The translations under genes were made by a program, and so were the position numbers. Positions 50,560-63,171 of a DNA stretch of 64,000 bases are shown piece by piece. Positions within the stretch are counted from its first letter, which is position 1. Every line of letters starts with the position of its first letter. The DNA is taken from contig JAOZUO010000013.1 in the NCBI GenBank assembly GCA_029938605.1, positions 6,462-70,461 of the forward strand, read 5' to 3'. This DNA comes from Deltaproteobacteria bacterium. GTDB taxonomy: Bacteria > Myxococcota_A > Polyangia > HGW-17 > JAJRWW01. The notes below the pieces were generated by a model that saw only the letters and a program-made list of their open reading frames with translations, did no database searches and had not been told where the DNA came from.

Positions 50560-51234
50560 TTATTGCTCGGACTCGGGCTTCTTGTAGCCGGGTTGGATAG
50601 TGGTTCTCGGTACCTGGTTCTCGTGCTCCCGGGCCGGCGTGAAGGCGATGATGCCGTCGAGACGCCCTTGCTTCTCGAGCCGCTCGTAGATCATGTGCCA
50701 GGCGCAGTCCTGGTCGTCCGAGATCTCGCACTTGCCGTGGTTCGTTCCACCGCAGGGACCGTTGTACAGGGACTTGGCGCACATGGTCACCGGGCAGACG
50801 CCGCCGGTGACACCGAGCACACAGCTCGAACAGGAGCGGCACCGCTCCTCGTACCAGCCCACGCCCTGGTTCACACCGATGAAGGTGGTGTCCACCATCG
50901 GAAGCACGGGCGTCTCGGGAAAGCGCTCAGCGAGGAACTGCACCCCCGCCCCACAGGCCATGGTGAGCAACGCGTCGTACCCCTCCACCTTGTCGTCGAG
51001 CACCTCGAGGTACTCCCGATCACACTGCCGCTCCACGGTGATGCTGTCGATGTCGATGGGCTCTTTGCTCAGGCGACGAGCCATGTCGATCTCGGCGGAC
51101 AGGACGTCCACCTCTTTCTCGCCACCGACCAGGCACACCGCCACACAGGTGCCACAGCCGACATTGAGCACCTTCTTATAAGGGCCGATGAGGTCCTTGA
51201 TCTCCTCGAAAGGCTTTCGCTTGCCAACGATCAT
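50560..51234 (-). CDS. metV: MetV-type small MTHFR subunit (Zn/Fe-S)
   Basis: GCGTCVAVC, RQCD, ACGAGVQ, C..C..C.LG.TGG.CP.T.CAKSLYNGPCGG, DCAW. Confidence 0.9.
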   Translation of the reverse strand: MIVGKRKPFEEIKDLIGPYKKVLNVGCGTCVAVCLVGGEKEVDVLSAEIDMARRLSKEPIDIDSITVERQCDREYLEVLDDKVEGYDALLTMACGAGVQFLAERFPETPVLPMVDTTFIGVNQGVGWYEERCRSCSSCVLGVTGGVCPVTMCAKSLYNGPCGGTNHGKCEISDDQDCAWHMIYERLEKQGRLDGIIAFTPAREHENQVPRTTIQPGYKKPESEQ

Positions 51235-51261
51235 TTTTTTACCTCTCGCACGGGGGCGCTC

Positions 51262-52593
51262 TTAGACTTCAAACACTTCTATCTCGTCGTGGAACACATT
51301 GACCTTCTTGAGGTCGGGCCCCAGGTACGCCCGCTCCTTGGGAGACAGGATACCCAGGGCGAGGCACAAAATAGTCCAGAAGTGCACCACATGGTAGCCA
51401 CCTCCAAAGTGCTCACTCAGATCGTGGATTTGGGCGTGGCAGTTGTGGCAGCCGGCGATGACGTAGGTGGCGCCGGTCTCCTTGATCTGATCGTCCTTGA
51501 TCTTGCCGTAGCCCCGCCGCTCCTCGGGGAATCCCGACTGCAGGAACCCACCACCCCCGCCGCAGCAGTAGTTGTTGGACTTATTGGGCTGCATGTCGAT
51601 GAAGTTCTCCTCACCGATGCAGGCCTTGAGAGCGTAGCGCAGATCGTCGGCGATGGCGTCACCGAAGCTCTTGCGCACGATCTGGCAGGGATCCTGAAGC
51701 GTAAACTTGATCTTCAGATCCTTGTTCCAGTCAGAGTTGGGCTTGAGCTTTCCTTCGCGAATCCACTTCGCGTAGTACTCATAGATGTTCTTAACTTCAA
51801 AGTTGTGCGGAATGTTGAACTTGTTCAGTCCGGCCCGGACTGCAAATGTTACGTGGCCTCACTCCGTGTTTAAGAATATCTTGCAGCCTAACTTGTCAGT
51901 CACCTCCGCGGCCTTGCGGGTGATGTGCTCCCACCCCTCATCGTCGGCCATGAACAGACAATAGTTTTCCGCGGCCCAGGCGGTCTTCGGATAGGTCCAG
52001 GACGCGCCCACCTGGTGCAGGATCTTCCACAGAGGCACCATCTCGTCGGGCTCGGTCATGGGCTCCCGAGAGTTCTGGTTCACCAGGAAGTGGGCCCCCT
52101 CCTTATCTAAGGGAGCCTCCAGGTCCTTGAACTCGGGCTGGTCGGTCTGCGTCTCCTCGAGCACGTCATTGACGATCCACTCAAAGTCCTCGGGGCTCGT
52201 ACCCATGGCGCTCAAGGATTCATTCGCCAGCGCCGCGTCGCAGGAGTGCAAGATGCCCTTGGGGCGCTCGGACCGTGGGACCTTCTGCCGCAGCTTGTAG
52301 ATCATCTGCGGGATGTCGATCTGCATGGGACACACCCGGCTACAGCGCTGACACATGCTGCAGAACCACGGCCACCTGGAGGCGAGGATCTCCTCGTCCA
52401 TGCCCAGGCTGAGCATCCGTAGGAACTTGCGCGGATCCATGTCGTCAAACGATGACGAGGGACACCCCGATGAGCAGAGCCCACAGGTGAGGCACAGGTT
52501 CAGGTTGCCCTGGGGCAACATTTCGCGCAGCTCGTCCAAAAGGTTCGGTTTGCGCTTTCCACCTAGCTTGATCGCCGTCTCAGCCATTTTCAT
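51262..52593 (-). CDS. HdrD-like Fe-S oxidoreductase (two 4Fe-4S motifs plus CCG domains), selenoprotein, 443 aa
   Basis: CLTCGLCSSGCP and CSMCQRCSRVCP; TGA 51859-51861 reads NTE-U-GH (the ECGH position) and the frame continues to QDPC, YCCGGGGG and GCHNC. Confidence 0.9.
51826..51842 (-). promoter_or_regulatory. Bacterial SECIS hairpin for the HdrD-like gene
   Basis: CAGUCCG-GGC-CGGACUG, 7 bp Watson-Crick stem, 16 nt after UGA. Confidence 0.8.
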
Positions 52594-52607
52594 CCCCTTT
52601 GCGGGAG

Positions 52608-53036
52608 TTATTCATCTTTGTTCTGGGCGGTGCCGAGCGGGCTCGGGCCCACCTCTTTGATGTACGCCGTCATCTCCTTGGCGTAGGCCGCGAATGTCGG
52701 CCCCTCACCCGAGGAGAGGTTGTACATGCGCACCCGCTCTTTTTCCATGCCCATCTCGTCGAGCATGGACTGCACGTGCTCCACCCGCTCGCGGCACCGG
52801 AGATTCCCGGCGTTGTAGTGACAGGTACCCTCCAGGCAGCCGACGCAATAGACCCCGTCGGCGCCTTTCTGAAAGGCCCGCAGCATCAACATCACGTCCA
52901 CCTTGCCCGTGCAGGGCACGCGCACGATCCGCACGTTCGCCGGATACTCCAACCTCATCGAACCTGCCAGGTCCGCGGCTGAGTAACCTCAGAACTCGCA
53001 GCAAAATGCAATGATCGTCGGTTCGAACTCGCTCAT
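52608..53036 (-). CDS. mvhD: MvhD/FlpD [2Fe-2S] subunit, selenoprotein, 142 aa
   Basis: MSEFEPTIIAFCCEF-U-GYSAADLAG..RVPCTGKVD..GCLEGTCHY; TGA 52989-52991; ATG overlaps the hdrA stop. Confidence 0.9.
52960..52974 (-). promoter_or_regulatory. Bacterial SECIS hairpin for short mvhD
   Basis: GGACCU-GGC-AGGUUC, 6 bp stem, 14 nt after UGA. Confidence 0.75.
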
Positions 53037-56000
53037 CCCGTTTTCTCCGCCAAAAGTCCATCTACCTTACTGATCAGTTGGTCGTCTTCATAGAAGCCGA
53101 GCTGGATCGTCTGGCGGGGGCACACACAGGCGCACACCCCGCAGCCGTGGCACATGGCCTCGTCGATCTTGATCAGCTTTTCGTTGTTGTCGAACACCGG
53201 CACGTCGAAGGGGCAATTTCGCACGCAGGTCAAACACTTCACGCAGTGGTCGGTGTCCACCTTGGCCGTAATGGCCGAGAGCTTGATCTCGGGCTTGGCC
53301 AGGAACGTAGTGGCCCGGGAGGCCGCCGCCTGGGCCTGGGCAAGCGTCTCGGTGATCAGCTTGGGCCCGTGGGCCGTGCCACACAAAAAGATGCCCGCGC
53401 CCGGCATGTCCACCGGACGCAGCTTCACGTGGGCCTCCATGAAGTAGTTCTCTAGATTCGTGTTGAGCTTCATGGTCCGACACAGCGTCTCGGTGTCGGC
53501 TGCACGCAGCCCGGCGCTCAGGGTCACCAGATCCGCCTCAATGGCCACCTGCTGCCCCAGGATGTGGTCCTTGACCCGAACCACCAGCCCATCACCGCTC
53601 TTCTCCACGATCGGCGGCTCCTCCTCCTTGAACCGGATGAAGATAACGTCCTTTTCCCGAGCCTCCCGATAGTAGTCCTCCATCTGACCGTAGGTGCGGA
53701 TGTCCCGGTACAGCACGAACACCTGGGTGTCCGGGCTCTGCTCCTTGATGGCCAACGCGTTCTTCACCGCGTTCTGGCAGCAGATGCGCGAGCACTCCTG
53801 CATCTCGTCGTTGCGGGAGCCCACGCACTGGATCATCACCACCGTGTCAACATCCGCCACGCCCTTTTCGGCGATCCGATCGGAGAGATCGAGCTGGGTG
53901 ATCACCCGCTCGTCGTCACCAAAAAGATACTCGGTGGGCTCGTACTCCACCGCTCCGGTGGCCACCACGATGGCGCCGTGGTCGATGGACCGCTTGTCCC
54001 CGCCCACTGCCACCTCCGTGGTGAAGTTGCCCTGGTACCCGCCAAAGCCCACCACCTCGGCGCCTAGGAGCACCTCGATCTTCTCGGCCCCCGACACGTC
54101 CGCCACGAGCTTGGCCACAAAGGCCTGCACGTCGGCGCCCTCGATGGTGTGGTGCAGTCGGCGCGCCAGACCACCGAGGCTGTCTGTCTTTTCGAGCAGC
54201 ACCACCGGGAAGCCCTGTCGCTCCAGGTTCAGCGCCGCGGTCATGCCCGCCACGCCCCCACCCACCACCAGGGCCTTCTGGTTCACCGGGATGCGCTTCT
54301 CCTCCATGGCCTTGAGCGTCCGAGCCCGCGCCACCGCCGCCCGGACGAGGTCCTTCGCCTTTTCGGTGGCGGTGTCCGGGGTCTTGGAGTGGATCCAGGA
54401 GTTCTGGTTCCGGATGTTGGCCATCTCGAACAGATAGCGGTTCAGGCCGCAGGCCTCCAGGGTCTCCATGAACATGCCCTCATGGGTCTTGGGGCTACAA
54501 GAAGCCACAACGACCCGATTGAGCCCCTGTTCGATGATCATCTCCTTGATCTTCTCCTGCGTATCCTGGCTGCAGGTGAAGAGGTTGGAGTCAGTGAACA
54601 CCACGTTGTCGAGGGTCCCGGCGTACTCCTGCACGGCGGGCACGTCCACCACGCCGCCAATATTGATGCCGCAGTTGCAGACAAACACCCCGATGCGGGG
54701 CTCCTGGTGGGCGACCTCCTTTTGTTCGGGCAGGACGATGGTCTCCACGTCCGTTCCCCGAGCCGCCGACAGGTCGGCCCCCGCCAGGCAGGCCGCCGCG
54801 CTGGCCTCGGTGACGCTCTCCGGAATGTCCTTGGGCCCCTGGAACACGCCACACACGTAGATGCCGGGCTGGTTGGTCTCCACCGGCGCCAGGGGATCGA
54901 TCTTGGCGTACTTGTACTTGTTGAGTTCCACCCCCAGGCGATCCGCCAACCGCGTGGCGTCCTCGGGAATGGTGAGGCCCACCGACAGGACCACCATGGA
55001 GAACTCGTCCACACAGACCTTGCCCTCCTCGTCCACATAGCGGACAGACAGGTCCCCGGTCTCGTGGTTCTCGTCGATGGTATGCACCCGGGCCTTGACG
55101 TACCGCACCCCCTCTTTGTCCCGGGCGCGCATGAAATACTTCTCGTAGTCCTTGCCGTAGGTGCGCATGTCCATGTTGAACACCACCGCGTCCAGATCGC
55201 CGTGGATATGCTCCTTGGCGATCATGGCCTCCTTGGTGGCGTACATGCAGCAAACCGACGAGCAGTAGCCGTTCCCGCACTGGTTCGTGTCGCGGGAGCC
55301 GATGCACTGCAGCCAGGCGATGGACTTGGGCTCGGCGCGATCCAGGGGGCGCATGATGTGGCCGTAATACGGCCCGCCCGCCGACAGGATCCGCTCGAAG
55401 CCGTCAGAGGTGACGACGTTGGCGAACTTCCCGTAGCCCAGGTGATCGAGGCCCGCCGGGTCGAAGGGCTTGGTGCCCGGAGCCAGGATGATGGAGCCCA
55501 CCTGCACGTCCGTCTGGCGCACCTTGTCGTCGTAGGCCACCGCGCCGGCGAGACACATGTTCTCGCACAGGCCGCAGCCCACGCAAGCGTCCATGTCGAT
55601 GGCGTAGGCGAGGGGCACCGCCTGGGCGTACTCGATGTACGTGGCGGCGCGGTCGTTCATGCCCTTGTTGATCGTGTTGATCGCCGCGATGGGGCAGTGG
55701 CGCGCGCAGTCGCCACAACCGGTGCACTTGTCCGCATCGATGTAGCGTGGGTTGTTCTGCAGCGATACCTGGAAGTTGCCCGGATCTCCGGACAGACCAG
55801 CGACCTCGCTGTTGGTAATCAGCTCAATGTTCTCGTGCCGGCCGACCTCGACCAGTTTAGGTGAGATTACTCACATCGTACAGTCGTTGGTCGGGAACGT
55901 CTTGTCCAGGCGGGCCATGAGCCCACCGATGGTCGGTCCTTTCTCCACCAAGTACACTTTGTAATCAGAATTTGCGAGATCGAGGGCGGCCTGCATGCCG

Positions 56001-56056
56001 GCGATACCAGCTCCCACCACCATTACCGATCCGCTCAAATTGTCCTGATTAGCCAT
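53033..56056 (-). CDS. hdrA: Heterodisulfide reductase subunit A-like flavoprotein, selenoprotein, 1007 aa
   Basis: [27 protein letters not shown] (TGA 55871-55873); the frame stays open through 70 more codons into ORF 53033..55660; WLQCIGSRD..CSSVCC; VVGGGVAG; C-terminal ferredoxin motifs. Confidence 0.93.
55838..55855 (-). promoter_or_regulatory. Bacterial SECIS hairpin for hdrA
   Basis: CUGGUCG-AGGU-CGGCCGG, 7 bp including two GU pairs, 15 nt after UGA. Confidence 0.75.
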
Positions 56057-56065
56057 GGTCTCTCC

Positions 56066-56815
56066 TCAAAGCGCTGCGAACACCGGGATGGACTCCTCCA
56101 TGCCTGTAAACTCGACCAGCTTCTTCTGCTCGAGATCGGCCAGGAGGTAGGACACCCGTAAGACTTCAATTTCGGTTTGCTCAGCCACCTGCCGCACCGA
56201 GGTGGTGCCGGACTTGATGGCCAGATAAATGAGGCTCTTCTGATACTCCCGCAAAAGCGCGTCGTCGAGCACCTGCTGGAGCTTCTCTTCCTTCCAGGGG
56301 CGCCCGTAGACGTCGCCCGCCGAGGTGATCTTGTGCTGCTTGCCCACCAACCACCGCATCACCTCGCCCTTGACCACCATCTCGGCGGCCCGAAGTTGCA
56401 AGTCGTACTTCGACACATCCAGGGGGCCGCGCTTCCGCACGGCCTCGGTGGCCTCGGTGACGATCTCGGTGAAGCGCTTGGCCTCGGCCGACGAAACCCA
56501 GTCCACATGGAGCCGGTCTCCGCCGATGCCCGTGAGCTCCAGCAACTGCTGGGTCATCGCCATCTTCTTTTCGGCCTGAACATTACCTTCCAGGTAATGG
56601 CAATCGCCGATCAGTCACCCGGCGACAAGGGCGCCGTCCACCCCGTCTCGGAAGGCCTGAACAATGAACGCGGGGTCCACCCGGCCCGAGCACATGACCC
56701 GCACAGACCGCACGTTGGCCGGGTACTGCATACGCGATACCCCGGCCAGGTCGGCGCCGGCGTATGCACACCAGTTACAAAGGAAGGCGACGATTTTGGG
56801 TTCGAATTCGTCCAT
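56066..56815 (-). CDS. mvhD: MvhD/FlpD with C-terminal helical/wHTH-like extension, selenoprotein, 249 aa
   Basis: [40 protein letters not shown] (TGA 56615-56617), joining ORF 56066..56563 in frame. Confidence 0.9.
56581..56599 (-). promoter_or_regulatory. Bacterial SECIS hairpin for long mvhD
   Basis: CAUUACCU-GGA-AGGUAAUG, 8 bp Watson-Crick stem, 15 nt after UGA. Confidence 0.8.
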
Positions 56816-56827
56816 CGGTAAAACCCT

Positions 56828-59800
56828 CTACACCACGGCCCGCACCGCCGCCTCGATCTGATGGAAGCGGAAGTGCAGCATGTCGATGGCCTCCTGGGGG
56901 CAAGAGGCGGCACAGAGACCGCACCCCTTGCAGGAAGCCTGAATATTCTTGGCTCGCTTGATCCCGTCGACCTCTTCGAGGTGGATGGCGCCAAAGGCAC
57001 AGACCTCCTCGCACAGACCGCACCCGATACACTTGTCGGGATCCACCTCAGATACGTAGGGCGAGATCTGGATCTGGTCCTTGGACAGGACCGTCACCGC
57101 CCGGCTCGCCGCCGCCATGGCCTGGGCGATGGACTCATCCATGGCCTTGGGGTAGTGCGCGAGGCCGGCCATGAAGAGGCCGTCCGAGGCGAAGTCCACC
57201 GGACGCAGCTTGGCGTGCGCCTCCATGAAGAACCGGTCCTCGGTGAGCGGGAGCTTATAGAAGGACGCGATATCCTCCGCCCGATTCGGCTCAATGGCCG
57301 TGGCCAGGTTGAGCAGATCCGTCTCGATCTCCACGGGCGCCCCGAGGATGGGATCGAAGACCTTGACGATCAAGCCATCGCCCGCGGCCACCACCTCCGG
57401 CTTACGATCGAGCGCGTACCGGATGAAAATCACCCCCAGCTCGCGCGCCTGTTTATAGAGGGCCTCGCGCTCGCCGAAAGTCCGGATGTCCCGGTACAGC
57501 ACGAACACGTTGGTGTCCGGCTTGTTCTGCTTGATATCGATGGCCATGGCCACAGTGGTGGAGCAACAGATCCGCGAGCAGTAGGGACGCGGATCGTTGC
57601 GGGACCCCACGCACTGAATGAAGGTCACCGTGTCGGCCTTTGCCAGCTTCTGTGGATCCTGCTCCAGATCGTGCCACCGGGTCACGGCCGGGTGCTGCCC
57701 GTAGAGGTACTCCTCGGTGTCGGTGGGCGCCCCTCCCGTGGCCACCACCACAGCACCGTGGCTGATGGTCTGGGGTCCTTTGCCGTTTTTCACCTCGGTC
57801 TCGAAGTTGCCCACGTAGCCCGAGGCGCCCAGCACCTCGGCGTCGGTCATCACGGTCAGGTTCTTGTGGCCCCCGACCCGCTCGATGAGACTGGTGAGAA
57901 ACGACTGAACATCCCGACCGTCGTGGGTGCGCTTCACATCGAGCGCCCGCCCACCGAGCTGGGAGGACTTCTCCACCAGCGTGGTGGGGAACCCCTGGTC
58001 GGCCAGGCCCAGGGCGGCGAACATGCCCGCCACGCCGCCGCCGATGACCAACGCCGCCTTGTCCACATTGACGGAGATGGGCTGGATGGACTCCAGCTCC
58101 CGGGCCCGAGCCACGCCCATCCTCACCAGGTCCTTGGACTTAGACGTGGCGAGATCCTTGTTCTCGGAGTGAACCCAGGTGCACTGGTTGCGGATGTTGG
58201 CCATCTCGAACAGGTGCGGGTTCAGGCCGGCGTTCTGCAGGGTAAACTGGAACAGCGGCTCGTGGGTCCGCGGCGTACAGGCCGCCACGACCACGCGGTT
58301 GAGCTTCTGCTCCTTGATGGTCTGGGTGATCTTCTCCTGGGTGTCCTGGCTGCAGGAGAACATGTTCTCCTCGGCGTACACCACACCGTCGAGCTCCTTG
58401 GCGTAGTCCACGATGGCCGGCACATCCGCGATGCCGCCGATGTTCAGGCCGCAGTTGCACACGAACACGCCTACCCGGGGCTCGTCGTCGGCCACGTCGA
58501 TCTCGGCGGGCAGCTCCAGGGTCCTGGTGAGCGTAGAGCGAGCCGGTGCCAACCCCGCGCCGGCGATGCAAGCCGCCGCGCTGGACTCAGCCACGGAGTC
58601 CGGGATATCCTTGGGACCGTTGAAGGCGCCACAGGCGAAGACGCCCGGTCGCGACGTGGACAGCGGAGTCAGGGAGTCGTGCTTCACGAAGCGGTTCTCG
58701 TTGAGCTCCACCCCGAGCCTCTCAGCCAGGGCCACGGCCTCGTCGGAGACCCGGAGCCCCACCGAGAGCACGACCATGTCGAACTGTTCGTCGACCACCT
58801 TGCCGTCCTCGGTGAAGTAGCGCAACCGGAGGTCCCCCGTGTCGCGCACCTCATCGATGGTATGCACCCGCGCCTTGACGAAGCGGACGCCGCTTTGGTC
58901 CTCCCCCCGGGTCAGGTACTTCTCGTACTCCTTGCCGAAGGTGCGCATGTCCATGTTGAAGATGGCGCAGTCGAGCTCGCCGTCAGCGTGCTCCTTGGCC
59001 ATCATGGCGTCCTTGACGGCGTACATGCAGCACACCGAGGAGCAGTAGCCGTTGCCGCAGCGGTTGGTGTCCCGCGAGCCCACGCACTGGAGCCAGGCGA
59101 TCTTCTTGGGCACCTGGTGGTCCGATGGGCGCGACAGGTGGCCCTCCGTGGGACCCGAGGCGCTGAGGATCCGCTCGAACTCCAGGCTGGTCATCACGTT
59201 GGGGTTGGACCGGTGGTGGTAGGTGTCCTCCATGCCCGATGGGTCGAAGGGCTCGATGCCCGCCGACAGGACCACCGCGCCCACCCGGATCTCCCGCTCC
59301 ACCTCCACCATGGAGTGGTCGATGGCGCCGGGAGCGCAAACGGTGACGCACTCCATGCAGTCGCTGCAGTACGAGCAGTTCAGGCAGCGGTCGGCCTCGG
59401 CCTGGCCCGCCTCGGGCTCGAACCCGAGCTCCACCTCGTCGAAGGTCGCGCGCCGGGACGCCGGCTCGAGCTCGGGCATAGAGGCCCGGGCAGCCTTGGG
59501 CATGTCGGTGGGCACCGGACGATAGATCGGATCGTCCTTGGTGATGGGAACGCGCCCATCGGCCATGTCCTTGCCGTCGATGAACCGGGAAATGGAGACG
59601 GCCGCCTCGCGCCCCGCGGCCACGGCGCCAATGGCGTTCCAGGGGCCCGTGTGGGCGTCACCGCCGGCGAAGACACCCTCCCGCGGTGTGGCGTAGGTGA
59701 CACCGTCGGCCTCGAGAGTCCCCCGGCGAGTGTACTCTACCTCTTTGTCGCCCTCGAAGGCGCTGAAGTCGGGCTGCTGTCCGATGGCCGCCACCACCTG

Positions 59801-61246
59801 GTCCGCCTCGAGATCAAACTCACTTCCCGGTACGGGTACAGGCCGCCGCCGGCCCGAGGAGTCAGGCTCGCCCAGCTCCATGCGGATGCAGCGCATGCCC
59901 TTGACCTTGCCGCCCTCCACCAGGATCTCCTGGGGCGCGGCCAGGTACTCGATCTGGACGTCTTCGGCCTCCGCCGCCTCGATCTCTTCCTCCCAGGCGG
60001 GCATCTCCGTACGGGTCCGCCGGTAGACGATCTGCACGGACTGGGCCCCGAGGCGAACCGCCGCCCGGGACACGTCGATGGCCACATTTCCGCCACCGAT
60101 AATGAGGACCTTCTTGCCCACCTGGGTCTTGCCCGTGAGGTTCACCTCACGCAGGAAATCCACACCCTGCCGCACGCCGTCAGCGTCGTCGCCCTCCACG
60201 GCGAGGTCGTAGCCCTTGTGGGCACCCACGGCCAGATACACGGCCTTATAGTCCTTGAGCAGGTCGTCCACCGTGAGATCCGGACCGAGGGGGGTGGAGG
60301 TCTTGATCTCCACGCCGAGGTTCGTGATGACCTCGATCTCCTGGTCGAGAATCGCCTCGGGCAGGCGGTGGTTCGGGATGCCCACCCGGAGCATTCCGCC
60401 CGCCTTGGGAAGGGCCTCATAGATGGTGGACTTGATGCCCTGGCGTGCCAGGTGGTAGGCCGCCGACAGGCCGGCCGGGCCGGACCCCACGATGGCCACC
60501 TTCTCGGGACGCTCCTCCATGCAGTCGATCTTCACCTGGCGGGGATCGAACTGATCCGCGGCCAGCCGCTTGAGCCGACAGATGGAGACGGGCTCGTCCA
60601 CGTCACAGCGCCGGCAGGCGTCCTCACACTCGTGGGGACAGATGCGCCCCAGGACGCCGGGGAGGGGCAGATCGTCCATGATGATCTCGAGGGCGCGCTC
60701 GTACTTGCCCTCCTTGACCATCTGCACGTAGCCCTGGACGTTGAGACCCGCCGGACAGGAGAGCCGGCAGGGCGCGCGATCCGTCTTCTGGATGGCGAAG
60801 ACGCCCGGGATGGCCTGGGCATACTTCTTATAAGCAGCCTTGCGGGTGCCGAGCCCTTCGTCGAACTCGTCTGGGAGCACAACGGGACAGACCTTCTCGC
60901 ACTCACCGCAGGAAGTACACTTGTCGAGATCCACGAAGCGAGGCTGGGTCCGCACCCGCGCGGAAAAGTTCCCCGGATCGCCCTCCAGGGCTTCCAGCTC
61001 GGTTCCCGTGAGCAACTCGATGTTCAGATGCCGGCCGACCTCGACCAGTTTAGGTGAAATAATTCACATGGTGCAGTCATTGGTGGGGAAGGTCTTGTCC
61101 AGCTTGGACATCACCCCACCAATGGCTGTGGACTTCTCCACCAGGTACACGTAGTAGCCAGATTCAGCCAGATCCAGCGCCGATTGCATGCCAGCAATGC
61201 CGCCGCCGACTACCATCACGGAGCCTGCAAGGTCCTGTTTGCTCAT
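56828..61246 (-). CDS. hdrA: HdrL-type large HdrA with inserted GltD/NfnB-like NAD(P)H module, selenoprotein, 1472 aa
   Basis: [19 protein letters not shown] (TGA 61064-61066); [21 protein letters not shown]; [11 protein letters not shown]; [13 protein letters not shown]; Hdr[16 protein letters not shown]; terminal ferredoxin motifs. Confidence 0.93.
61031..61048 (-). promoter_or_regulatory. Bacterial SECIS hairpin for hdrL
   Basis: Identical 18-mer to the hdrA SECIS, 15 nt after UGA. Confidence 0.75.
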
Positions 61247-61576
61247 CGTGTCGATCCTGCCTCTCGTCGTGATCCCAAACCGTCGGATTGCGCCAAATGA
61301 ACAGAATACAAACCACCCTGCCCCCTACAGCCGGGAACCAGGCGCCCCGAGCCGGTACCGCGCTGGTGAGTGCGGAAACGCTAACGTCGGGATATCCCTA
61401 TTCTAAAACCTATTTGTCAGCACAAACCGAATACAACTAACCACCTGAAATGAATAAACAAAATCCAGACGGTGGCCAGTGACAATATCCATAGCATGGT
61501 GGTAGTGAAGATCGCAAGGGGAAAAGGCCGGATCTTCCGGATTATTCAACTCCAATAGGAAAACAATGGTTTCTCT

Positions 61577-61600
61577 ATGTACTAGAAAACATTAGTACAT
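61577..61600. promoter_or_regulatory. Palindrome ATGTACTA-N8-TAGTACAT in AT-rich leader of the hdr operon
   Basis: Perfect 8-bp arms, about 330 nt upstream of the hdrL start. Confidence 0.5.
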
Positions 61601-61656
61601 TAAAAAGCCCCCTAAGTAGGTTTATATTCTCTGTTTTCCGTCGGGGATCTGGGAGC

Positions 61657-63171
61657 TTAACGCGCCACGGTCTCCGTTTGGGAGGTGTCCATCTTCTGAC
61701 GGGCCTTCTCGATCATCGCGAGCACTTTTTCGGCCATCATGGGAGGAGTCTCTCGACGGAGTCGTTCCTCATCGATGGAGCTCCAGGCGCGCAGGGCATG
61801 CACCTTCTGTCCCGTGGGCCATAGCCGCAAGGACGCCCCCACCAGGGCCAGGGTCCGACGCGGCTCCTGGAGGGTCTTCGCCGTGTCCAGCAGCTCGTCC
61901 ACGTAGGGCACCAGGTCATCGGAGCCGCGACTGGGCGGCCAGCAGGCCAGCAGCTTCTGCAGGGCAACCAGCCGGGCCACGGGCTCCTCGTCCACGGCCC
62001 CGGCCAGGGCGCGCTCAAGCAGCTCGGTGGCGCGCTCGGAGCGCCGCTTCGCCTGGAGGGCGTCAGCCCGCATGGTCGCCACATTGAGTCGATCCAGGGG
62101 CGTGAGCCGGGCGTCATCTATCTCCCGCAGCAGCGTCCGCGCTCGCTCCGAGCGGCCGAGGCCCAACCAGGCCCGGGCCACGGAGGTCTTGAGGGCGATA
62201 AGGACCTCGGAGTCCAGGTCCTCCTCCATGAGACGGGAGCCCGCCGCCACCACCGCCTGACCAAGCTCCTTGGTCAGGCCCTGGTTCCCGATGACCACAC
62301 CCAAGGCGGTAAGACAGGCCGCAACGGGGGTGGTGCGGTGGCCGTTTTCCACCAACGCCTCCAACGCGGTGGCGCAGCGTCTCACCGCCTCCGCGGAGAT
62401 CTGGAATCGCTCGGCGAGCTGCAAAATGCGCTCAAGGGCCTCAATGTCGTCGTCGGGCTCGGGCGACTCCATGGCCAGGTTCAGCGCGCGCACGAGCAGC
62501 TCTTCGGCACGATCCGGGTCGGTCTCTCCCTCCGTTGCCATGGCCTCCTCCATGACGTGGCCGTACTCCGCTCGGATCTCATCGAGGTGGCGGCTGTCCA
62601 TGGGGGTGTGCTTCCCTGAAGGCTCCCCGGCGGTGATCCCCCGCAACCGGTACAGCTCCCTCCGGGGAAGCGCTGCCGCCGCGGCCAACCGTACGGTCTG
62701 CGCCAACAGCGGGTACTTGCGCGGGTCGATTCCCGGCAGGAAGGTCTGGTACATCCCGGGCAGGCACGCCAGCAGCCCGACATCGGCGCTCACCAGGCGA
62801 ATGGCGCCCGCCAGGTGCACCCGCCCCCGGAGGATGTCCAGGGCGTATCGCCGGAGCCCGTCGCTGGCAGGCAAATCTCCGCGATGCTCCACGATGGTCT
62901 CCAGCACCCGGTGAAACCCGATGGTGTTCTGCGCCTCCACGTAGAAGGCCCAGTCCAGCCCCTGGGTACCAAACAGCGAGGCGGTATCGGTGGACTCGAG
63001 CTCCTGCTCCGCCGAGCCGGCCCACCCCGCGCTGATGAGCAGCACCTCGTCATCCACCTCCCCCCAGCGCAGTCGCATGTCCAGAATTCCGGCCGCCTGA
63101 TCCTGGCGGTAGGAAGCGAACAGATCGCTGGCCAACTGCAGCTTGTCCTCGTGTCCTTCTTCACTCGTCAT
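61657..63171 (-). CDS. Hypothetical helical-repeat (TPR-like) protein
   Basis: Long open frame, Ala/Leu/Glu-rich helices; probable ATG at 63171 (MTSEEGHEDK). Confidence 0.6.
   Translation of the reverse strand: MTSEEGHEDKLQLASDLFASYRQDQAAGILDMRLRWGEVDDEVLLISAGWAGSAEQELESTDTASLFGTQGLDWAFYVEAQNTIGFHRVLETIVEHRGDLPASDGLRRYALDILRGRVHLAGAIRLVSADVGLLACLPGMYQTFLPGIDPRKYPLLAQTVRLAAAAALPRRELYRLRGITAGEPSGKHTPMDSRHLDEIRAEYGHVMEEAMATEGETDPDRAEELLVRALNLAMESPEPDDDIEALERILQLAERFQISAEAVRRCATALEALVENGHRTTPVAACLTALGVVIGNQGLTKELGQAVVAAGSRLMEEDLDSEVLIALKTSVARAWLGLGRSERARTLLREIDDARLTPLDRLNVATMRADALQAKRRSERATELLERALAGAVDEEPVARLVALQKLLACWPPSRGSDDLVPYVDELLDTAKTLQEPRRTLALVGASLRLWPTGQKVHALRAWSSIDEERLRRETPPMMAEKVLAMIEKARQKMDTSQTETVAR

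Follow-up and report, generated by a model that had tools for sequence, protein, structure and literature searches.

The subject here is five hairpins that follow the in-frame UGA codons of a selenoprotein operon at 51262-61246 (minus strand) of the window, a 64,000-nucleotide stretch from a genome assigned to the Myxococcota. They are very probably ordinary bacterial selenocysteine insertion sequence (bSECIS) elements whose geometry belongs to the gene family or subfamily and is inherited with the gene, rather than the product of a decoding rule at the level of the organism. With TGA read as selenocysteine (Sec, U), the region resolves into five minus-strand genes, an hdr cluster of two hdrA genes (a hdrA-gltD fusion and hdrA2), two mvhD/vhuD-like genes (mvhD1 and mvhD2) and one hdrD/GlpC-like gene, each with one in-frame UGA. 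Both the operon type and its SECIS elements are already known, so that what we describe are bSECIS elements of a described type in a known kind of selenoprotein operon. The initial annotation of this DNA had instead drawn a compact, lineage-specific SECIS rule from the same five sites.

Its starting claim, that each of the five UGAs is followed by a stem with a small G-rich loop, was confirmed at all five sites on the minus strand. The loops are those it gave (AGGU, GGA, AGGU, GGC and GGC, in the gene order of Table 1), the stems are 7–8 bp where 6–8 bp had been claimed, and all are perfectly paired. The claimed spacer of 14–16 nt holds for every gene except mvhD2, where it is 13 nt. The minimum free energies (MFE) of the hairpins were -9.1 (fusion gene), -15.9 (mvhD1), -10.6 (hdrA2), -14.0 (mvhD2) and -10.8 kcal/mol (hdrD-like gene). 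All five lie within coding sequence directly downstream of the in-frame UGA, and the UGAs align with Cys codons of homologues. The bSECIS model, in the summary given by PMC13188914 of bSECISearch (Zhang & Gladyshev 2005), asks for a loop of 3–9 nt, an upper stem of 4–16 bp, an MFE of -7.5 kcal/mol or lower, a G as first or second nucleotide of the loop with G or U next to it, and a UGA-to-loop distance of 16–37 nt. As so summarised, each of its terms (loop, stem, loop G, spacing and MFE) describes all five operon elements, which differ from the consensus in no way of kind but occupy a narrow corner of the space it allows (20–23 nt, perfect 7–8 bp stems, 3–4 nt loops). The summarised model is sensitive but also permissive: with GC content as high as it is here, 23.5% of the genome's true TGA stops satisfy it. 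A scan of 51000-62000 against Rfam, with E-values up to 10 admitted, gave two chance matches and no SECIS family.

The frequency of such hairpins was determined over the whole 8.56-Mb assembly. Of all TGA trinucleotides, 1875/210,478 (0.89%) carry one downstream, and among the TGA stops of called genes the count was 15/1920 (0.78%), one of which is the Sec site of the hdrD-like gene itself. The initial annotation had asked whether equivalent hairpins are as common after true TGA stops, and at 0.78% of called stops they are not; nor was one found downstream of the TGA stops of two of the operon's own genes, mvhD1 (56068-56066) and hdrA2 (53035-53033). With a background this low, the presence of hairpins at five of five sites is far beyond chance. 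Constraint on the RNA is also visible in the codons. The two hdrA copies do share the 29 identical nt reported for them (tcacctaaactggtcgaggtcggccggca): in the aligned N-terminal domains, synonymous differences occur in 39 of 81 degenerate codons for identical residues, while none of the nine codons at +3 to +11 past the UGA differs. The excess of A/U-ending codons noted near the UGAs was likewise borne out, as 25/60 of the codons in the 12 following each UGA end in A or U, against 435/3251 elsewhere in the five genes (3-fold; Fisher p=9e-8).

The same hairpins occur in other lineages. A search with the HdrA2 N-terminus, taking one genome per species, gave 80 loci. The 18-nt HdrA hairpin CUGGUCGAGGUCGGCCGG is identical in 13 other Sec-type HdrA genes, carried by Desulfohalobiaceae, Desulfobia, Desulforhabdus, Desulfoferrobacter suflitae, Desulfobacterales, Desulfarculia and two relatives of the same class as the host. 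Across the six hairpin codons, third-codon entropy is 0 in 15 Sec-type HdrA genes versus 1.0–1.7 in 22 Cys-type genes; the spacer codons have values of 1.0–1.8. A second HdrA hairpin, GAGGCC-GGUC-GGUCUC, is shifted to 27 nt from the UGA and is invariant in 31 Sec-HdrA genes (motif LVEAGRS) from Desulfobulbaceae, Desulfurivibrionaceae and cable bacteria (Candidatus Electrothrix). The other operon elements behave in the same way. The mvhD1 hairpin (CAUUACC-UGGAN-GGUAAUG) is present in four orthologues and not in 15 Cys forms, and one Desulfobacterales orthologue of mvhD2 has both the TGA and an identical hairpin. Five orthologues of the hdrD-like gene retain its hairpin; over the six sequences 93.8% of cells are paired, compared with at most 48% for slid controls, and two pairs of the stem have changed on both sides (G-C to U-A). 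Furthermore, across nine genomes in which the hdr hairpins are also present, 20 of 20 Sec-FdhA genes have loops of GGUCU, GGGCU or GUU at 18–19 nt, as in the present genome, with stems that covary. The rule cannot therefore be called lineage-specific, since the HdrA, MvhD1, MvhD2 and HdrD-like hairpins are all shared with orthologues from other taxa, which together span several Desulfobacterota orders. Frozen synonymous sites, the retention of A/U-ending codons that pair, and the absence of the hairpins after true stops and from Cys-type homologues support the conclusion that these are SECIS elements under RNA-level selection.

Other selenoproteins of the same genome were sought by scanning for an in-frame UGA that is flanked on either side by coding potential and accompanied by a hairpin, matches being checked by family search and folding. 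A strict coding-potential threshold lost both mvhD sites, which a relaxed version recovered. The scan yielded eight further selenoprotein genes or candidates: FdhA, a peroxiredoxin, two Prx-like UxxC proteins, DfsP (the DUF166 selenoprotein, above the NCBIfam cut-off), a UshA-like PCGU protein, SelD and an unassigned lipoprotein. In seven of these the UGA-to-loop distance is 16–19 nt and the loop is GGUCU, GUCU, GUC, GGUC, GUU or AGUUC. SelD (UGA on contig C313, 0-based position 54061, plus strand) is a selenoprotein itself (SCAG-U-AAK). The hairpin nearest to its UGA (loop CCCG) fails the G rule, and the sole consensus-type one, GGCGCA-GGUCG-UGCGUC, lies at a distance of 32 nt. Thus none of the eight fits the rule that had been proposed for the lineage. 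The scan that the initial annotation had suggested, with its own pattern and coding potential on both sides, returned the five known sites and no further selenoprotein gene. The narrow five-example pattern is highly specific, occurring at 1 of 498 true TGA stops, but is over-fitted to one operon, and would miss all eight other genes or candidates. Since none of these fits it, and since the same hairpins recur in orthologues from other lineages, geometry follows the gene family and not the organism.

The lipoprotein candidate (contig C97:130-1266, plus strand) is a predicted protein of 378 aa with an in-frame UGA (0-based 903) in a thioredoxin-like WUPGC motif, followed by a strong 8-bp hairpin whose loop, GUC, is 18 nt from the UGA. 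It had no Pfam or NCBIfam match, and may represent an uncatalogued selenoprotein family. Two further in-frame TGAs were noted. One, on contig C108 (0-based 609, plus strand), interrupts a NAD-dependent epimerase-like open reading frame (ORF; MTTST-U-YGPQ), has no hairpin downstream, and more likely reflects gene decay or misassembly than a selenoprotein. The other, on contig C56 (0-based 10861, plus strand), lies within a repeat of a repeat-rich secreted protein (FVVAW...GVFAQRF repeats) and is followed by a very stable fold (-28.9 kcal/mol) that does not look like a bSECIS. Among the called genes, TAG terminates 1783 of 4560 (39%) versus 1931 for TGA, which seems high for 64% GC, although the gene calls are rough. 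The genome has a complete Sec machinery, with selA (533 bits), selD (316 bits), a 97-nt tRNA-Sec on contig C3 and selB (315.8 bits), the last being the single match above the cut-off. A second, short (79-nt) ARAGORN tRNA-SeC call at C219:67174-67252 is probably spurious or else a degenerate copy.

The features of the operon are collected in Table 1. NCBIfam names for its products are HdrA2/HdrA, VhuD and TmcB/HmcF/DsrK-like, and the TGA stop of hdrA2 overlaps the ATG of mvhD2. The Sec position differs between the two MvhD paralogues, an N-terminal CxxU in mvhD2 and G-U-xxGxCH in mvhD1, both positions being Cys in homologues. Plus-strand ORFs containing UGA in the region were rejected as antisense shadows of the minus-strand genes.

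Table 1. Genes, Sec codons and SECIS hairpins of the operon, with positions numbered in the window
Feature	Position	Strand	Details
hdrA-gltD fusion ('HdrL'-like)	56828..61246	-	1472 aa, Sec61; open with TGA=U; NCBIfam HdrA2 2.8e-286 and PRK12771/GltD
Sec UGA of hdrA-gltD fusion	61064..61066 (first base 61066)	-	Opposite Cys in 23 Cys-type HdrA; TGA in 46 Sec-type HdrA
SECIS hairpin of hdrA-gltD fusion	61031..61048	-	CUGGUCG-AGGU-CGGCCGG; 7 bp, spacer 15 nt, UGA-to-loop 22 nt
mvhD1 (MvhD/VhuD-like)	56066..56815	-	249 aa, Sec67; true TGA stop 56068-56066
Sec UGA of mvhD1	56615..56617 (first base 56617)	-	Cys in 15 homologues; TGA in 4 orthologues
SECIS hairpin of mvhD1	56581..56599	-	CAUUACCU-GGA-AGGUAAUG; 8 bp, spacer 15 nt, UGA-to-loop 23 nt
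hdrA2	53033..56056	-	About 1007 aa, double HdrA module, one Sec; true TGA stop 53035-53033
Sec UGA of hdrA2	55871..55873 (first base 55873)	-	Translation and HdrA alignment
SECIS hairpin of hdrA2	55838..55855	-	CUGGUCG-AGGU-CGGCCGG, same as that of the fusion gene; 7 bp, spacer 15 nt, UGA-to-loop 22 nt
mvhD2 (MvhD/VhuD-like)	52608..53036	-	142 aa, Sec16 in N-terminal CxxU motif
Sec UGA of mvhD2 (FCCEF-U-GYSAADLAG)	52989..52991 (first base 52991)	-	Cys in >20 homologues
SECIS hairpin of mvhD2	52959..52975	-	CGGACCU-GGC-AGGUUCG; 7 bp, spacer 13 nt, UGA-to-loop 20 nt
hdrD/GlpC/TmcB-like Fe-S oxidoreductase	51262..52602	-	About 445 aa, one Sec (LNTE-U-GHVTF)
Sec UGA of hdrD/GlpC-like gene	51859..51861 (first base 51861)	-	TGA kept in 5 orthologues
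SECIS hairpin of hdrD/GlpC-like gene	51826..51842	-	CAGUCCG-GGC-CGGACUG; 7 bp, spacer 16 nt, UGA-to-loop 23 nt

The origin of the operon was examined by comparison with 60 relatives of the host. Genomes of the same genus and the same family had Cys-type HdrA only, at 59% identity or less, and Sec-HdrA was found in just two genomes of the same class, at 51–53% identity. The best matches of hdrA2 (72%) and of the hdrD-like gene (67%) are both in one Desulfobacterales metagenome-assembled genome. Because the close relatives are Cys-type only and the best matches lie in Desulfobacterota, the whole selenoprotein cluster was probably acquired horizontally from a Desulfobacterota-type source, as judged from these sequence comparisons, with its codon usage ameliorated thereafter. 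Codon usage in the operon is now host-like, with third-position GC of 0.81–0.88 and coding log-odds of 0.53–0.73 against a genome median of 0.51. Selenoprotein operons of the form glpC-hdrA-frhD(-frhG-frhA) were described in Deltaproteobacteria, for example Syntrophobacter fumaroxidans and Desulfotalea psychrophila, in 2006 (PMC1794560), together with their lateral spread and a SECIS phylogeny that tracks the selenoprotein phylogeny. The present operon resembles them in the clustering of Sec-type HdrA, FrhD/MvhD and GlpC-like genes, in a duplicated and fused hdrA and in the evidence of horizontal spread. It differs in lacking the hydrogenase genes frhG and frhA, in having two mvhD paralogues whose Sec residues occupy different Cys positions, and in its host, which has a genome of 64% GC and whose relatives within the genus and family carry Cys-type HdrA only.

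Several points weigh against reading the hairpins as SECIS elements inherited with their genes. Folding of the sites, a check proposed in the initial annotation, gave energies better than those of shuffled sequences, but the advantage is modest (z of -1.4 to -2.7, whole folded window against shuffles), and at the hdrD-like site the MFE structure of 45 nt is a competing fold and not the hairpin. Whole-window z-scores discriminate poorly in GC-rich sequence, and we therefore relied on the empirical TGA background and the comparative data instead. The gene calls behind the stop-codon control came from a codon log-odds model of our own making. The HdrA and MvhD stems do not vary and so contribute no covariation; among the operon elements it could be counted for the hdrD-like hairpin only, where it comes from six sequences and its score is reached by 60 of 500 shuffles. 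Finally, the direction of transfer, which we infer, depends on the assignment of the genome to the Myxococcota.

Three other explanations were considered. The lineage's SelB might impose its own compact rule (UGA, 14–16 nt, a 6–8 bp stem and a small GG loop) by which all of its selenoproteins could be found. The striking uniformity of the five sites and the rarity of the pattern at true TGA stops speak for such a rule, but we regard it as highly improbable given that none of the other eight selenoprotein genes or candidates obeys it, that identical hairpins occur across several Desulfobacterota orders and that the genome scan returns the five operon sites only. It is also unlikely, though less so, that one SelB serves two SECIS classes, an hdr class (20–23 nt, GG loops mostly without U) being decoded with an efficiency or selenium dependence unlike that of an E. 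coli-like class (16–19 nt, GGUC-type). The distances in the five hdr sites and in the seven others do not overlap, and a single SelB scores above the cut-off; however, inheritance by gene family fully explains the difference, the published range as summarised in PMC13188914 runs from 16 to 37 nt with G then G or U, and SelD, at 32 nt, breaks the dichotomy. Were there two classes, the five Sec insertions on one mRNA could be coordinated or tuned at the level of the operon, for example under selenium limitation. Least credible of all, in our estimation, is that the hairpins are by-products of conserved peptides (LVEVGR, HYLEGN, ADLAGS and VRAGL) and GC-rich codon usage and are not needed themselves. 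They do overlie conserved peptide motifs, and Cys-type mvhD genes that encode ADLAG already form part of the stem, but Cys-type homologues whose peptides are identical or similar form no hairpin and show free variation at third positions. Moreover, precisely where pairing occurs, A/U-ending codons that are otherwise rare (GGU AAU, GGA, GCA) have been kept, and the hdrD-like stem has compensatory changes.

In E. coli and Moorella, the SelB.GTP.Sec-tRNA(Sec) complex contacts the apical loop through the C-terminal winged-helix domain of SelB and brings the tRNA to the UGA in the A site, the spacer setting the distance. By analogy with E. coli and Moorella, the genome's single SelB would bind the G-containing apical loop of each operon hairpin and would deliver Sec-tRNA(Sec) to the UGA, with the ribosome 20–23 nt upstream of the loop. 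The sequence and geometry of each hairpin have very probably been passed on with its gene, fixed by constraint on protein and RNA together. Common descent from a Desulfobacterota-type hdrA-mvhD-glpC selenoprotein operon would then account for the likeness of the five sites in spacing and in their GG loops.

The initial annotation had also compared the AGGU loop with that of the E. coli fdhF SECIS, whose sequence we verified in 5419 of 5426 E. coli genomes. The likeness holds: the fdhF apical loop is AGGUC, AGGU is common to fdhF and both hdrA loops, and in both systems the hairpin lies directly downstream of the UGA. The upper stem of the fdhF SECIS contains a bulged U, which is not present in the hdr-operon stems. 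The loops of the operon are also 3–6 nt further from the UGA (20–23 nt versus 17 nt), the first loop G falling at positions 24–27 (1-based) rather than at 22 as in the verified fdhF sequence, and the U that follows G in the fdhF loop is missing from three of the five (GGC, GGC and GGA). Elements of the strict fdhF type (an 11-nt spacer, with loop G and U at positions 23 and 24 from the U of the UGA) were not found among the five, whose spacers are 13–16 nt. The differences in distance and in the missing U are both inside the bSECIS range as PMC13188914 summarises it. The host genome's own FdhA SECIS is close to that of E. coli fdhF, with a spacing of 18 versus 17 nt and a loop of GGUCU.

For annotation, the five operon genes should be joined across their UGAs. 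Beyond this, the result matters mostly as a correction of a rule drawn from neighbouring genes. The general model, in its summarised form, is too permissive for GC-rich genomes. The UGA-to-loop distance is characteristic of each family across orders, at 18 nt for FdhA, 22 nt for HdrA type 1, 27 nt for HdrA type 2 and about 23 nt for MvhD and GlpC-like proteins. Thus, because SECIS geometry is conserved per gene family, family-specific patterns are better aids to the annotation of selenoproteins than organism-specific ones.

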